DNA of 64,000 nt from Escherichia coli (lineage in GTDB: Bacteria; Pseudomonadota; Gammaproteobacteria; Enterobacterales; Enterobacteriaceae), in NCBI RefSeq assembly GCF_044647545.1, contig NZ_CP172818.1. The stretch is one strand, 5' to 3'. The notes under the pieces are model-generated. The model was given only the letters and a program-made list of their open reading frames with translations, had not been told where the DNA came from and searched no databases. Below are positions 2,493-31,792 of this stretch, piece after piece. A program made the position numbers and the translations under genes. Positions within the stretch are counted from its first letter, which is position 1, and each line of letters begins with the position of its first letter.

Positions 2493-3944
2493 TTAGCACA
2501 ACGGACGTACAGCTTCGCGCATTCCTTTTTCGAGAATCGCATCCAGGTCATTAGCAACCTGCTCGACCAGACCAGGCACTTGCGTCAGGTCCTGCTCCCA
2601 GTGGTCTTTTTCTGCCAAAACAATCGCTACCAGTTCCTGGGTGCCGATAACACGGTTACGATGCTGGCTCCAGAGTTGCTGATAACGTTCCAGCCAGTGG
2701 GCATCGTCCTGTACCGGATATGTTTCTCCATTACGCTCACCGCGATAGAACGCAATCAATGCTGCTAATGCGAAAGTAAGGCGCGCCGGAAGTGTGCCGT
2801 TTGCCTTCTGCCCTGCCAGCAGCTGCGGCAGGATACGGGTGCGGAACTTGGTCATACCGTTGAGCGCGATAGACAGCAGCTGATGCTTAATGTACGGGTT
2901 ACGGAAACGCCCGGTGACAGCACTGGCGAAAGATTCCAGTTCATCACGAGGCAAATCCAGTACCGGAATAATCTCTTCGTAGATGGCTTTTTCAACGAAT
3001 GCGCAAATTTCAGCATCGTTCATCGCTTCACCTACGGTATCCAGCCCTGCCTGGAACGCCACCGGCACCAGCGCGGTGTGCGCACCGTTGAGGATTGCCA
3101 CTTTGCGCTCTTTATACGGTTTAATATCGTCAACAATCAGCACGTTGAGCGGATATTTGTCCAGACGCAGCTCAGTCGCTAAGGATTTCGGCCCCTGAAT
3201 CACAAACAGGTAAAAGTGTTCAGCGGTGTCGAGGAAACCATCGTGATAACCCAGTTCTTCTTCCAGTTTAGCCACTTCATCACGCGGATAGCCGGTAACG
3301 ATACGGTCCACCAGCGTAGAACAGAAGCTGTTAGCCTGATCCAGCCATTGAATAAATGCTTCTGGCAGTGCCCACTCTTGCGCGTAGCGCAGCACCAGTT
3401 CACGCAGTGCATCGCCGTTATAGTCGATCAGTTCACATGGTATGATGATCCAACCTTTATCCTGCGCTCCGTTGAAATGGCTAAAACGTTCGAACAGCAG
3501 ACGGGTCAGTTTTGCCGGATAACTTACCGCTGGCGCGTCATCGAATTTATCGCCCGCATGGTAGCTGATACCCGCTTCGGTGGTGTTAGAGAAAACAAAG
3601 CGCATTTCCGGGTTGTGCGCCAGTTTCAGGAATTCATCGTATTCACTGTAGACGCTGATTTCACGATTAACAGAGCGAATCAGACGCGCGTCGCTGACCG
3701 CTTCCCCCTTCTCGTTCAGACCACGGATAATGGTGGTGTACAGACCATCCTGCGTGCTCAGTGACGGCGGGAATGAAGTTTCAATCGGACGAACAACGAC
3801 CACGCCAGAATTCAGATCGGTGTGCTCATTCAGGAGATCGATTTGCCAGTCAACAAAGGCGCGCAGGAAGTTACCTTCACCAAACTGAATGATACGTTCT
3901 GGATACTGTGCACCGGGAAAATCGCGACGATTTAGTGTTTTCAC
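2493..3944 (-). CDS. uxaB: altronate oxidoreductase (tagaturonate reductase), 483 aa
   Basis: 483-aa [33 protein letters not shown]...; recognised. Confidence 0.95.
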
Positions 3945-24128: not shown

Positions 24129-25412
24129 TTACAGACTTCTTGAAGGTTGCGCTGCTGTTACAACACGCGGTTGATCTTCCGCGGCATCTTCCAGTGCACT
24201 TAAATCACGGTCTTTCACTTCTGGCATTTTCAGCGCAGAGATTAAACCAATCACTGAATATGCCATGATCATAATGGCGATCGGATACCAGGATTCCGTC
24301 ATGGTGCAGAAAATACCCGCCAGGATAGGACCAAAACCGGAAGCGATAAGACCACCAATTTCTTTAGAAATAGCCATCCGGGTAAAGCGGTTTTTACAGC
24401 CGAACATTTCTGCCATGGTAATGTTTTCCAGAGCAAATAATCCCAGCACCGCACAGTTATGAATCACAATCAGTGCAACCATAATGGTGCTCGGGGCATA
24501 GCTTTTATCTACGATGATAGAAAGCATTGGCCACGCCAGCACAATCGCAGAGGTATTCATAATAATATACGGGATCCGGCGACCTATTTTATCGGATAAC
24601 CAACCAAGGAACGGAATGGTCATAAAGCCGAGAATCGAACTGATCATCAATGCATCTGTTGGAATTGCTTTGTTAAACAATAACGTCTGCACTAAATAGC
24701 CTGCAAGGAAAGTCTGAATTAAACCTGAGTTACCAGCCTGACCAAAACGCAGCCCTGTTGCCAGCCAGAAGGATTTGCTCTGGAACATGCTACCAGCAGG
24801 TGCAGGTTTTGCTGTCGGTTGATTGCTGTCGTTAACCTTCTCAAAGACCGGGCTTTCTTTCAGATTCATACGCAACCAGATAGCAAAGACCATCACGACA
24901 ACGCTCGCCAGGAACGGTATACGCCATCCCCACGCCAACAGTTCCTCTTTACTGAGAATGAAGAACATAAAGGCCCAGATTGCCGTTGCGCTCAAGGTTC
25001 CGCAGTTAGTCCCCATAGCAACAAATGAGGAGATAATTCCGCGCTTACCTTTTGGCGCATATTCCGCCAGCATCGTACCGGCACCGGAAATTTCCGCACC
25101 TGCACCCAATCCCTGAATAATACGCAGCGTCACCAGCAAGATGGGTGCAAAAACACCAATCTGTGCATAGGTCGGTAACACACCAATTAAGGTGGTACAG
25201 ATCCCCATCATGGTGATGGTAATAAAGAGTACTTTTTTACGCCCTATTCTGTCGCCCATTTTGCCGAAAATAAATGCTCCGACAATACGCGCCACATAAC
25301 CTGCACCGTAGGTTCCCATTGCCAGAATTAACGCCATTGCCGTTGATGATTCAGGAAAAAATATTTCATGAAACACTAACGCTGCGCCGAGCGAATATAA
25401 CTGGAAATCCAT
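24129..25412 (-). CDS. ydfJ: MFS transporter YdfJ, N-terminally truncated by prophage insertion (427-aa remainder)
   Basis: ORF starts at MDFQLYSLGAALVF, inside the first TM region; the missing N-terminus (MTIEKHERSTKDLVKAAVSGWLGTALEFMDF) lies at 46250-46342 on the far side of the prophage. Confidence 0.85.
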   Translation of the reverse strand: MDFQLYSLGAALVFHEIFFPESSTAMALILAMGTYGAGYVARIVGAFIFGKMGDRIGRKKVLFITITMMGICTTLIGVLPTYAQIGVFAPILLVTLRIIQGLGAGAEISGAGTMLAEYAPKGKRGIISSFVAMGTNCGTLSATAIWAFMFFILSKEELLAWGWRIPFLASVVVMVFAIWLRMNLKESPVFEKVNDSNQPTAKPAPAGSMFQSKSFWLATGLRFGQAGNSGLIQTFLAGYLVQTLLFNKAIPTDALMISSILGFMTIPFLGWLSDKIGRRIPYIIMNTSAIVLAWPMLSIIVDKSYAPSTIMVALIVIHNCAVLGLFALENITMAEMFGCKNRFTRMAISKEIGGLIASGFGPILAGIFCTMTESWYPIAIMIMAYSVIGLISALKMPEVKDRDLSALEDAAEDQPRVVTAAQPSRSL

Positions 25413-25416
25413 AATT
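25403..25416. repeat. attL core copy
   Basis: gaaatccataattc; 11 identical bases plus TTC shared with the right-end copy. Confidence 0.6.
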
Positions 25417-26198
25417 CACAGGTGTTTTTTCCCATCCTGTGGTTTCCTTGGCGTTTTCTAGGTTTTTTCAGATAGTTGCATTTTTTAAAAAGCATCCTAA
25501 GTTCGATCTCAGTGTCTATCTGGGGCCTATTTCTGTCCCATATATGCCCCAAAAAAAACTCCCCAACAGATAAGTAGTTTTTTCATGGATTTATGCGTAA
25601 AATCAAGAACGGCTGGAAATCATTCAATACTCACACTATCGAAAAATTTACCAGCCAACCGCAGCACGTTCTTGCATAAGGCGTGTCTGCGGTTTTTCAA
25701 CTATTCAGATACATCACTCCCATCACATTCATTCCTCCGCATCAAAGGCATATAGGCTATATCACCTTGATATTTTTCTTTTTCAGATAAAAACTGTTAT
25801 CTATGTATACTTTTAAACCCAATCCGTGTAGAGTCTCTGCATAAGATAGTTTACAGTTGCCGCTTCAGCTTGCGCCATAAACCGCCTGATTTTTGCTGCC
25901 ACCTGTTAGCATTCCTGTATACCTGAAACGACAATGTTTATCTACGAACTTTAAGAACACCCAAGATAAAAATTGTCAACTATATCATATATAACACATT
26001 ACTAATTCGAGGCTATATGAACAGCATACTGATAATCACATCTCTCCTTATCATATTCAGCATTTTTAGTCATGCCCTAATAAAATTAGGGATTGGCATA
26101 TCCAATAACCCAGACAAAACCGATGTATAAGTCAACATATCCTGAATCAGACATACAATATCGCAATGAAAATCAATAATATTTTAAGGAATATCTTC

Positions 26199-26432
26199 AT
26201 GAAATCAAAAGACACCCTAAAGTGGTTCCCTGCGCAGCTTCCTGAAGTAAGAATTATCCTAGGGGATGCTGTAGTGGAAGTAGCAAAACAGGGAAGACCT
26301 ATCAATACCAGAACATTGCTTGATTACATTGAAGGAAACATAAAGAAAAAATCATGGCTGGATAACAAAGAATTATTACAAACAGCGATATCAGTTCTTA
26401 AAGACAACCAAAATTTAAATGGTAAAATGTAA
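26199..26432 (+). CDS. ydfK: Qin prophage protein YdfK, 77 aa
   Basis: MKSKDTLKWFPAQLPEVRIILGDAVVEVAKQGRP... Confidence 0.8.
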   Translation: MKSKDTLKWFPAQLPEVRIILGDAVVEVAKQGRPINTRTLLDYIEGNIKKKSWLDNKELLQTAISVLKDNQNLNGKM

Positions 26433-26748
26433 TATAATAAACTTACTTTTTTATCATTTTTCCACTTTAACAACATTTTGCTCCACTTTTCCACGACCAA
26501 ACAACTTGAAATCTGGTTAAAATAACACGCAACACTATTCTTCTTCCTTGAGTCCGCCCGGAACTCGAAAAACAAACCGAGTTAAAGCCTTTTTTCACAA
26601 AATCGATTTTGGGTCTCACCAAAATTACGGGGTTGCATACGCATTCGTTTATTTTCGAACGTGTACATACAAATATGCACAAAAATAATCATAATTATTT
26701 TCTGAGATGCATTATGATATGAACACCAATTTCGTATAGAGTCTCACT

Positions 26749-27339
26749 ATGTCTCGAATTTTTGCTTACTGTCGGATATCAACGCTGGATCAGACCACCG
26801 AAAATCAACGCCGGGAAATCGAAAGTGCAGGTTTTAAAATCAAACCTCAGCAAATAATCGAAGAACACATTAGCGGCTCAGCAGCAACCAGTGAGCGTCC
26901 TGGTTTTAACCGGTTGCTTGCTCGCCTGAAATGTGGTGATCAATTGATTGTGACAAAACTGGATCGCCTTGGTTGTAATGCAATGGATATCAGGAAAACA
27001 GTGGAACAACTGACCGAAACAGGTATCAGAGTGCATTGCTTAGCATTGGGTGGCATTGACCTGACCAGTCCAACAGGAAAAATGATGATGCAAGTAATTT
27101 CAGCAGTCGCTGAATTTGAACGAGACCTTTTACTTGAACGCACTCATTCCGGGATAGTAAGAGCCCGCGGCGCAGGGAAACGTTTTGGTCGACCACCTGT
27201 GTTAAATGAAGAACAGAAACAGGTGGTATTCGAACGAATTAAGTCAGGTGTAAGTATAAGTGCCATTGCCCGGGAATTCAAAACCTCGCGGCAAACCATT
27301 TTAAGAGCCAAAGCAAAACTTCAGACACCTGACATATAA
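26749..27339 (+). CDS. pinQ: serine DNA invertase PinQ (Hin/Gin/Pin family), 196 aa
   Basis: N-terminal resolvase catalytic region ([17 protein letters not shown]) and C-terminal HTH. Confidence 0.95.
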
Positions 27340-27436: not shown

Positions 27437-28011
27437 CTACGGCAGTGCTGGCCATTCAATATCCTGTGCAGTTGACGTATCAACACGGTTCAGCAATACC
27501 CGATACTTTTTCCATGCTTCCAGCAACGGGGTTTCTTCCTCCGTTGCAATTTCCAGATCTGCAGCATCCTGAAGCGGCGCAATATGCTCACTGGCTACCT
27601 GCATCAGGTTGTTTTTTTTTCTTCCGCTTCCCGTATCCGAAACAGTTTTTCTGCTTCCTCATCATTCACCCAGGATACGCCGTCCCACTTCTGATACTCC
27701 CCTGCTGGCGACAACCAGGTGACATTCTCTGGTAGCGGTCCGAGTTCAGAAATAAACAATGCGTCCCCCGACGCCACGTCATAGACCGTTTTACCACGAT
27801 GGTCTTCAACAATATTCCACGATTCATTTTCACTGTTAAAAACTGCCACAAAGCCAGCAGGAATTTCCGGTGGGGCGATATCTGTAGAATTAGCTGGCAG
27901 CCCTGTATGAGGTGGAATATATGCGTCACCTTCACCAATAAACTCATTAGTTCCGGCCAGCAGGTTATAAATTTTTACGGTACGTGATTGTTCACTCATT
28001 CTGAATGCCAT
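27437..28011 (-). pseudogene. tfaQ: tail fibre assembly protein TfaQ, frameshifted at a 9-nt homopolymer (27612-27620)
   Basis: N-terminal frame stops after ...EAEEKKTT at 27604; the C-terminal part ([22 protein letters not shown]...DIEWPALP*) continues in another frame to a stop at 27437-27439. Confidence 0.7.
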
Positions 28012-28934
28012 TATGCAAGCCTCACAATATAATTAAATGCGATGTTTTTAACGGTGTTTTCCGCGTTACCAGCAGCGTTAACGGTGATGGTGTGTCCATG
28101 TGAACCAATCTTAACAGAGTGCGTATGAGCGCCAATACCAACAGTGTGTGCATGTGCCCCAGCACTTGTAGCGGTACCTGATACTGAGTGGGTATGTGCG
28201 CCAGAAGAAGGCACAGTTCCATTCCCCACCACCGTGCCACTTGATGAACCATCCAGCCAGTCGAAATTCATACCGCCACTGTTTGGTCTCCTTAATGGAA
28301 CGGTATGAGTATGTGCGCCAGCACTATTTGCAGTACCAGATACATTGTGGGTATGTGCACCTGTGTTATTCGTTGATTTAGTACCGTAATCAAACGACGA
28401 TGTGGTTTTCGTACCCAAATCCGTACTGGATGCGCTGGCACTGTGGGTGTGCGATTTAATGCCATCCTGTTCCTGAGACAATACGGCCCGACCACTGGCG
28501 GGTTTGCCCTTGATTGTCCAGCCGCGCATATCTGGAATAACACCAGAAGGATAGGCAATAGCCAGTTTCGGATATGCTGCCTTATCAAACGTCTGCCCCT
28601 GCATGATTGCATAACCTGCAGGTGGCGTATCTGATGGCCACGGGATTGGTGCACCGACTGGATAAAACTCTGCAGGAGGATGAGCCGAGGTGTAAAGCTG
28701 CGCCCACGGCGACCAGTTTGCGTCGGTCGTATCCCGTCGTGAACGAATAAATGCCGGAGCATGAGCACCGCTTGTACCACTCCAGCCGATGAGTAACTCA
28801 CCTTCGCCAACGGCTGTCATCCCTTTCAGGTGAATGATATTTCCATACGCTGTTGGATATCCGTTGTTATACACCTCGTATAACTCAAGACCTGCTGCCC
28901 CCTGCGTATTGTCTGTCAGCGCGGTTATATTCAC
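28011..28934 (-). CDS. stfQ: side tail fibre protein fragment StfQ (YdfN); Gly/His-rich repeats
   Basis: 307-aa ORF with repeated [11 protein letters not shown]-type units; stop overlaps tfaQ start (TAATG); the 5' end overlaps nohQ so the true start is uncertain. Confidence 0.65.
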
Positions 28935-31308: not shown

Positions 31309-31579
31309 AATGTTACCGTAATATGTGAGTATCCATCGACTAGACACTAAGCAAAAAAGCTCCCGAAGGAGCCTTCATTTTCACTTTCTTAAATCTAACG
31401 ACAGATGGCTAACATTTAAGTATTGTGAAATATTATCAAATGTAATCATCATTGATTTACAAAAGATACATTTTGCCCCGAAAGGATTTCTGTCAGAAAC
31501 ATCAAAAGATGATGTTCTATACTGAGAACCATGGCAACACGGGCATCTAAAGTGAATATGGTTTGTAATATTTTCTACC

Positions 31580-31792
31580 TCAAAGTGCCACTACATGAAC
31601 AGCTGCAGGGCCTTTAGGTCCGTTCTCAATACCAAATTCGACTTCCTGATTCTCAGTTAACGTTTTGAAATCGTTGCTCTGAATAGCTGAGAAATGCACA
31701 AACACATCTTTGCTACCATCTTTCGGCGTGATGAAACCAAAACCTTTTTCAGGGTTAAACCATTTCACTAAACCAGTCATTTTGTTAGACAT
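31580..31792 (-). CDS. cspI: cold-shock protein CspI, 70 aa
   Basis: [38 protein letters not shown]...; long AT-rich upstream leader. Confidence 0.9.

Follow-up and report, generated by a model that had tools for sequence, protein, structure and literature searches.

YnfT, a 37-residue small protein of Qin-type prophages already on record, and its recurrent neighbor YdfK

The window considered here, a 64,000-nucleotide stretch of Escherichia coli DNA (RefSeq assembly GCF_044647545.1, contig NZ_CP172818.1), carries a 37-codon open reading frame at positions 26017-26130 of its plus strand. It begins with ATG, and its position and translation are exactly as a preliminary description had given them. 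That description called the frame unannotated-looking, a view that is outdated: RefSeq places a coding sequence at exactly window 26017-26130 in strain FDAARGOS_497, and the counterpart in K-12 MG1655 is ynfT (b4748, 1632890-1633003). A megablast query spanning 25800-26500 matched 2807 of 5426 complete E. coli genomes, in which the feature is annotated as either ynfT or ynaM. The translated peptide belongs to the YnaM/YnfT family, scoring 63.9 bits over residues 2-34 against the NCBIfam model NF041477 (cutoff 35) and 96.2 bits over residues 1-37 against the Pfam model PF23676, "YnaM" (cutoff 27). It also matches phrog_35882, and its matches in PHROGs are confined to families of unassigned function. 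Consistent with family membership, the gene lies in a lambdoid (Qin/Rac-type) prophage, directly upstream of ydfK/ynaE and pin. The frame is almost certainly a genuine and already known small protein-coding gene; ynfT is annotated, is described by curated family models, and has a detected product, such that singling it out was correct but not new. The window itself comes from a non-K-12 E. coli, sharing 97.4% identity with K-12 over 6 kb and 100% identity with FDAARGOS_497 over 4.7 kb.

The setting of ynfT is largely as first described. The host MFS transporter gene ydfJ (24129-25412, minus strand) is truncated by the prophage insertion and marks the left junction; by K-12 annotation the boundary lies at about window 25404, which puts the frame some 610 bp inside Qin and thus near the prophage left end. 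The surroundings are indeed AT-rich (32-36% GC across 25800-26700, compared with 46-51% in ydfJ), and ydfK, a conserved neighbor encoding the 77-residue "cold shock protein YdfK" (26199-26432, plus strand), starts just downstream, after a 68-nt spacer. The GAGG noted ahead of the ATG is present at 26009-26012 on the plus strand, but it is separated from the ATG by 4 nt (CTAT) and not by 6; this Shine-Dalgarno sequence is kept in phage 2H10 and in Salmonella phage 118970_sal3. The next gene of the phage block ynfT-ydfK-pin-tfa-stf is a pinQ-type serine invertase (26749-27339, plus strand). Further 3', the tail-fibre-assembly region is unlike that of K-12, with a tfa frame of 135 residues at 27604-28011 on the minus strand; K-12 ceases to align at about 28203-28312, as might be expected if tail-fibre cassettes had recombined or been shuffled by Pin.

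Several candidate expression signals surround the two genes. A sigma-70-like site (TTCAGA-18-TATACT; 25782-25811, plus strand), about 200 nt 5' of ynfT, may act as a promoter for ynfT-ydfK with a long leader. Phage 2H10 has the whole site unchanged, and RNAP peaks published from gSELEX fall, after conversion, at approximately window 25741-25843, 5' of ynfT (PMC5493296); the offset used, +1976, was taken from published Fur-site coordinates. A second sigma-70-like sequence in the spacer between the genes (TCAACA-16-TACAAT; 26132-26159, plus strand) could, as a consensus match, be ydfK's own promoter; distant ydfK-like genes carry a TGnTATACT-type -10 element about 20 nt before their ATG. Promoter-like sites are no commoner in this region than in shuffled sequences, and the same holds for the antisense strand. 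The TTGTCA at 25974-25979 was discarded as a promoter element, having no acceptable -10 at a distance of 16-18 nt. The ynfT-ydfK spacer contains no predicted terminator, and the ynfT leader no cspA-type cold box. A direct repeat of 20 nt, AGATAAAAAYTGTYAWCTAT, occupies 25785-25804 of the plus strand and recurs, with 17 of 20 positions identical, at 25964-25983, ending 33 nt before the ynfT ATG. The two copies lie 179 nt apart, and homology with the Salmonella phage copy starts at the proximal one; the repeat could be a site for a regulator or of the IHF type, or it could reflect chance in AT-rich DNA.

Published data add a regulatory context. A predicted Fur-box cluster in the spacer, at 26160-26195 by our conversion of coordinates, overlies the ydfK ribosome-binding region; it scores 17.1 bits, is centred at about window 26174 after conversion, and is identical at ynaE (PMC2189734). 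Both ydfK and ynaE have been reported as "Fur-activated". One RNA-seq study recorded a 5.7-fold rise of ynfT, at an adjusted p of 0.067, and a 5.3-fold rise of ydfK, together with cspI, cspG, cspB, ymcE, deaD, and rhlE (PMC13058169). Both ydfK and ynaE are also strongly elevated in long-term stationary phase (PMC7406224).

That the protein is made has been known since VanOrsdel et al. (2018) SPA-tagged 80 short ORFs on the chromosome and detected 36 of the products (PMC6001520). This exact sequence is among them, at the ydfJ/ydfK locus 1632890-1633003, and the identical protein YnaM of the Rac prophage is listed in the same table of new small proteins (PMC6001520). The suggestion that the frame encodes a small single-TM protein, such as screens for small proteins turn up, is therefore borne out by the family models and by SPA detection, with its membrane location being a prediction. 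Nomenclature at the locus is inconsistent: Table 1 of VanOrsdel 2018 assigns 1632890-1633003 the name ynfQ (PMC6001520), whereas RefSeq, EcoCyc, and the later y-ome paper use ynfT, with ynfQ being a different Qin gene. The y-ome paper has the Qin cluster begin at 1632890, with ynfT as its first member.

The Rac copy deserves particular attention. YnaM (b4744) of K-12 Rac and YnfT are identical in protein sequence, both were detected as SPA fusions (PMC6001520), and their genes lie in like surroundings (ynaE/ydfK, pinR/pinQ, tfa, and stf), within about 2.2 kb of near-identical DNA. The three coding differences between the two copies are all synonymous and at third positions; the insertion sites differ, Rac residing near ttcC/uspF and Qin at ydfJ. 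Tagged YnaM/YnfT reaches a comparatively high level in ordinary LB (PMC6001520; bioRxiv 10.1101/511675). Nonetheless, Weaver 2019 noted no start peak for YnaM with retapamulin/Onc112 although the tagged protein was abundant (bioRxiv 10.1101/511675). That work mapped reads to unique positions only, at up to two mismatches, and in K-12 no base distinguishes the Rac copy from the Qin copy between -53 and +23 relative to the ATG. We infer that initiation footprints of ynaM and ynfT would have been thrown out at the mapping step. Because the start region is duplicated and reads were uniquely mapped, the absent YnaM peak is uninformative, and the absence of an initiation signal in profiling data, which the preliminary description would have held against the gene, is not a valid argument in K-12. 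A missing start-site peak should not weigh against translation of ynfT or ynaM.

Comparative evidence for the reading frame comes from four copies: this window, K-12 Rac ynaM, phage 2H10, and Salmonella phage 118970_sal3. None of the four is open in either of the remaining sense frames, and all keep the Shine-Dalgarno sequence, ATG, and stop codon. Relative to the Salmonella phage copy, with which DNA identity is 79%, differences fall 4/4/15 across the three codon positions and pN/pS is 0.15; across all pairwise comparisons pN/pS ranges from 0.00 to 0.19. This pattern of substitution indicates that the frame is under purifying selection and is no chance ORF. The conservation in Qin-like prophages raised in the preliminary description is present, and it extends to free phages. 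Searching IMG/VR with the tail motif recovered 22 loci, and in every one the 37-residue frame is intact. The gene order int-attP-ynfT-ydfK-pin-tfa-stf is found in mEp460, 2H10, Tritos, Kati, Turner, and other lambdoid phages, while Salmonella phage 118970_sal3 retains ynfT-ydfK without pin. These phage homologs were collected by DNA search; tblastn matched residues 23-37 only, with the hydrophobic half masked by the low-complexity filter. The two genes may thus be viewed as an accessory module of lambdoid phages, set between attP and the pin/tail-fibre genes, a position that puts the module at the extreme end of the prophage in a lysogen.

The layout of the peptide is simple: three uncharged residues lead into one hydrophobic helix, in which small residues abound, and a short acidic tail follows. 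A single TM helix is predicted at approximately residues 4-28, followed by a conserved 10-residue tail. The best 19-residue stretch (residues 4-22) has a Hessa sum of -1.83 and a mean Kyte-Doolittle hydropathy of 2.52, and the Hessa sums of the 19-residue core range from -1.2 to -3.0 among seven homologs. The single predicted TM helix of the preliminary description thus finds support in a negative value for every homolog. YnfT is, judging from these predictions, probably an integral membrane protein. Lysine and arginine occur on the C-terminal side only, and because all of them (two lysines only) lie there, insertion into the inner membrane would most likely be N-out/C-in. The most conserved part of YnfT is the polar tail and not the helix; the tail's invariant SNNxD motif may serve as the functional surface of the protein.

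YdfK, the partner candidate, has a predicted structure that is all-helical, comes nearest to YmgB/AriR, and matches the fold of PDB 2oxl, and it probably has the YmgB/AriR connector fold. The YmgB/AriR protein is a connector that binds signaling proteins such as RcsC. Counting against this link are its basis in a predicted structure and the weakness of the sequence signals. YdfK is just 13% identical in sequence to the YmgB/AriR, YcgZ, and YmgA connectors (PDB 2oxl); hhalign gives an E of 0.0015 and a probability of 17% against YcgZ, and an E of 0.027 against AriR. By the NF040640 model YdfK is not in the YcgZ sequence family (YcgZ_fam; 15.9 bits against a cutoff of 80), and a search of PDB sequences with the YdfK profile returned no significant match. 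The loci differ as well, in that the ycgZ-ymgAB operon is without a YnfT-like membrane peptide, unlike the ydfK locus.

How closely YnfT is tied to YdfK can be gauged from loci that carry one or both. Among the 22 viral loci, YdfK lies immediately 3' of YnfT in 20, showing that ynfT is inherited together with ydfK. In two others (L077 and L078), an intact YnfT directly adjoins tfa and YdfK is missing; YnfT may therefore not need YdfK. YdfK in turn does not need YnfT, since, of 39 YdfK-like loci at species level, about 30 lack any YnfT-like ORF within 2.5 kb, several of them with a divergent YnfU instead. The sequence comparisons thus depict a pairing that is recurrent but not obligate.

Searches with YnfT itself suggest a very narrow family: phmmer over 1.84 billion representatives returned only four clusters at 50% identity, all of them close relatives or fragments. 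YdfK-like proteins of 55-73% identity, by comparison, are spread across Enterobacterales, and more distant YnfT-like peptides were found by way of YdfK-like loci, with a three-sequence HMM and the tail motif. Upstream of ydfK-like genes, a peptide of the form MNFP[GC]WIAI..ALVKIASQVSNNNDEKEP is encoded in a metagenome contig (L015, 2805-2924) and in Pantoea eucrina (L023, about 2305-2424). Downstream of a ydfK-like gene, an Enterobacterales MAG (L038, about 2888-3004) encodes a peptide ending in ...GNDVSNNQDDKEE, and three Raoultella species (L045, about 3240-3359; L046 and L047, about 3215-3334) encode one ending in ...LWIAVSNNPD[AN]TDI downstream of a second YdfK paralog. The neighboring YdfK-like genes of these loci (L015, L023, L038, and L045-47) stand at 57-60% identity. 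Each distant peptide has 37-39 residues and one TM helix, is uncharged before the helix, and closes with [IV]SNNxD and then four further residues, no more and no fewer. Across the 506,296 residues translated from these loci, nine of ten SNNxD matches take the form of a hydrophobic stretch, SNNxD, four residues, and a stop, a configuration that occurred in none of 20 shuffles. Most of these distant peptides fall below the PF23676 threshold or have no match at all, and the YnfT family is, by these motif matches, broader than present models capture.

Other small-protein genes gather at the same loci. A second and far more divergent YdfK paralog sits beside ynfT/ydfK in the Salmonella-type viral loci (L064-L076, at about 750-1040 in each), and another beside the YnfT-like/YdfK-like pair of Raoultella (L045, 2970-3206). 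These paralogs match the YdfK profile with E of about 1e-12, and a three-gene cluster results. A homolog of YnfU, a small zinc-ribbon protein (PF23499), is encoded in the present prophage at window 31393-31587 on the minus strand, about 5 kb away, and in five distant Enterobacterales loci (L010, L011, L013, L014, and L045) a YnfU gene divergently adjoins a YdfK-like gene. Families of the YnfT, YdfK, and YnfU type thus tend to cluster. Separately, in Enterobacter a TCTGTT hexanucleotide microsatellite (L007-L009, about 2740-2765; L008, about 2700-2767) lies about 240 nt 5' of the ydfK-like gene. Its length varies between strains, being longer in L008, and it may be a contingency-type repeat.

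The best overall explanation, to which we would give roughly even odds, is that the known gene ynfT belongs to a phage module and acts with YdfK; the functional partnership of the two proteins, considered on its own, falls somewhat below that mark. By this account ynfT and ydfK would probably be co-transcribed and rise with the cold-shock gene set, and YnfT, inserted in the inner membrane, would work with cytoplasmic YdfK through its SNNxD tail and small-residue helix. YnfT might tether or modulate YdfK, or else modulate a host membrane signaling protein. The promoter-like site that ydfK has to itself in the spacer counts against such coupling. A working model for YnfT action is offered by the small E. 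coli regulators of the MgrB-PhoQ, AcrZ-AcrB, MgtS-MgtA, and SafA-PhoQ pairs, which resemble YnfT in size class (31-65 residues), in having one predicted TM helix, in stress-linked expression, and in having been found in small-ORF screens. YnfT shares no sequence similarity with MgrB, AcrZ, MgtS, or SafA, and unlike them it is phage-borne, very narrowly distributed, and equipped with an invariant C-terminal SNNxD tail.

The nearest competitor to a partnership dispenses with YdfK altogether. YnfT might be a factor for lysogenic conversion or exclusion in its own right, modulating a host transporter, sensor kinase, or phage-entry component from the inner membrane, with its adjacency to ydfK reflecting nothing more than a shared "moron" location. 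Between attP and the tail-fibre genes, where ynfT lies, lambdoid phages carry further accessory genes (lom, bor, and cor, for example), and many characterized small membrane proteins of E. coli (MgrB, AcrZ, and MgtS among them) modulate host membrane proteins. A helix rich in small residues would suit helix-helix packing with such a target, and the loci described above fit as well, both the two viral ones that keep an intact YnfT alone and the majority of YdfK-like genes that do without it. Location alone, however, hardly explains why YnfT and YdfK adjoin in four sequence-divergent lineages with differing gene orders, and the defence models of PADLOC match neither YnfT nor YdfK. We consider independent action of this kind unlikely, if still a serious contender.

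A role as a membrane-damaging peptide in the manner of the type I toxins Hok, Ldr, Ibs, TisB, and PepG1, normally repressed and serving prophage maintenance or abortive infection, is less probable again. YnfT has the typical size and composition of this class, with 37 residues, one hydrophobic helix, and a short polar C-terminus; such toxins are often found on mobile elements, as ynfT is on a prophage, and the PepG1 model yields a sub-threshold match (E = 0.055). That match amounts to 13.1 bits against a cutoff of 70, PADLOC gives none, and no toxin family is hit. No Rfam antitoxin sRNA reaches its gathering score in 25000-27200, where the scan yielded sub-threshold chance matches only (CssrB, 25.3 bits against 76, and mir-263); antisense promoter-like sites, as noted, do not exceed their frequency in shuffles. 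The leader is neither structured nor occluded, the mRNA of the start region being not unusually folded (z = -1.08) with its Shine-Dalgarno sequence free in the centroid structure. Conservation peaks in the polar tail and not in the helix, and the tagged protein builds up in ordinary LB, in healthy cells, unlike repressed toxins. On balance we judge toxicity of this sort improbable.

Least credible of all, and in our view very improbable, is that ynfT is a regulatory leader whose translation controls ydfK while the peptide itself has no function: although ynfT lies 68 nt 5' of ydfK, is separated from it by no predicted terminator, is co-induced with it (PMC13058169), and has codons that pair with the ydfK ribosome-binding region in the MFE fold, the idea is defeated by the position of homologs 3' of ydfK-like genes in Raoultella (L045-47) and the MAG (L038) and by selection on the peptide itself (pN/pS 0.15), and it sits poorly with an intact ynfT copy that exists without ydfK, with a stable tagged protein that accumulates, and with an RNA fold of 25990-26210 that is no better than shuffles. 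A specific version, in which ynfT translation unmasks the ydfK Shine-Dalgarno sequence, was dropped on the same z of -1.08 for 25990-26210.

Returning to the favored account, in which YnfT acts with YdfK, it is tempting to take it one step further. The pair may constitute a hitherto unrecognized phage-borne signaling module, in which a 37-residue, SNNxD-tailed membrane anchor or sensor combines with a cytoplasmic AriR-fold connector. With it, lambdoid prophages would redirect an envelope or stress pathway of the host (Rcs, or a SpoT-like target) at low temperature; in Pantoea, Raoultella, and other Enterobacterales, the wider family with SNNxD tails would then play the corresponding part on the chromosome. 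We put this forward as a speculative idea that is considerably more likely to be wrong than right.

For small-protein discovery, the locus serves as a calibration point, at which a reading of sequence alone correctly singled out a genuine small membrane protein gene. To what was on record, the present analysis adds the mapping caveat for duplicated start sites, the occurrence of SNNxD peptides with YdfK-like genes in several lineages and gene orders, and a predicted fold for YdfK. Two genes of the "y-ome" thereby gain a concrete hypothesis: that they may encode a cold-responsive pair, made up of a membrane peptide and a connector.
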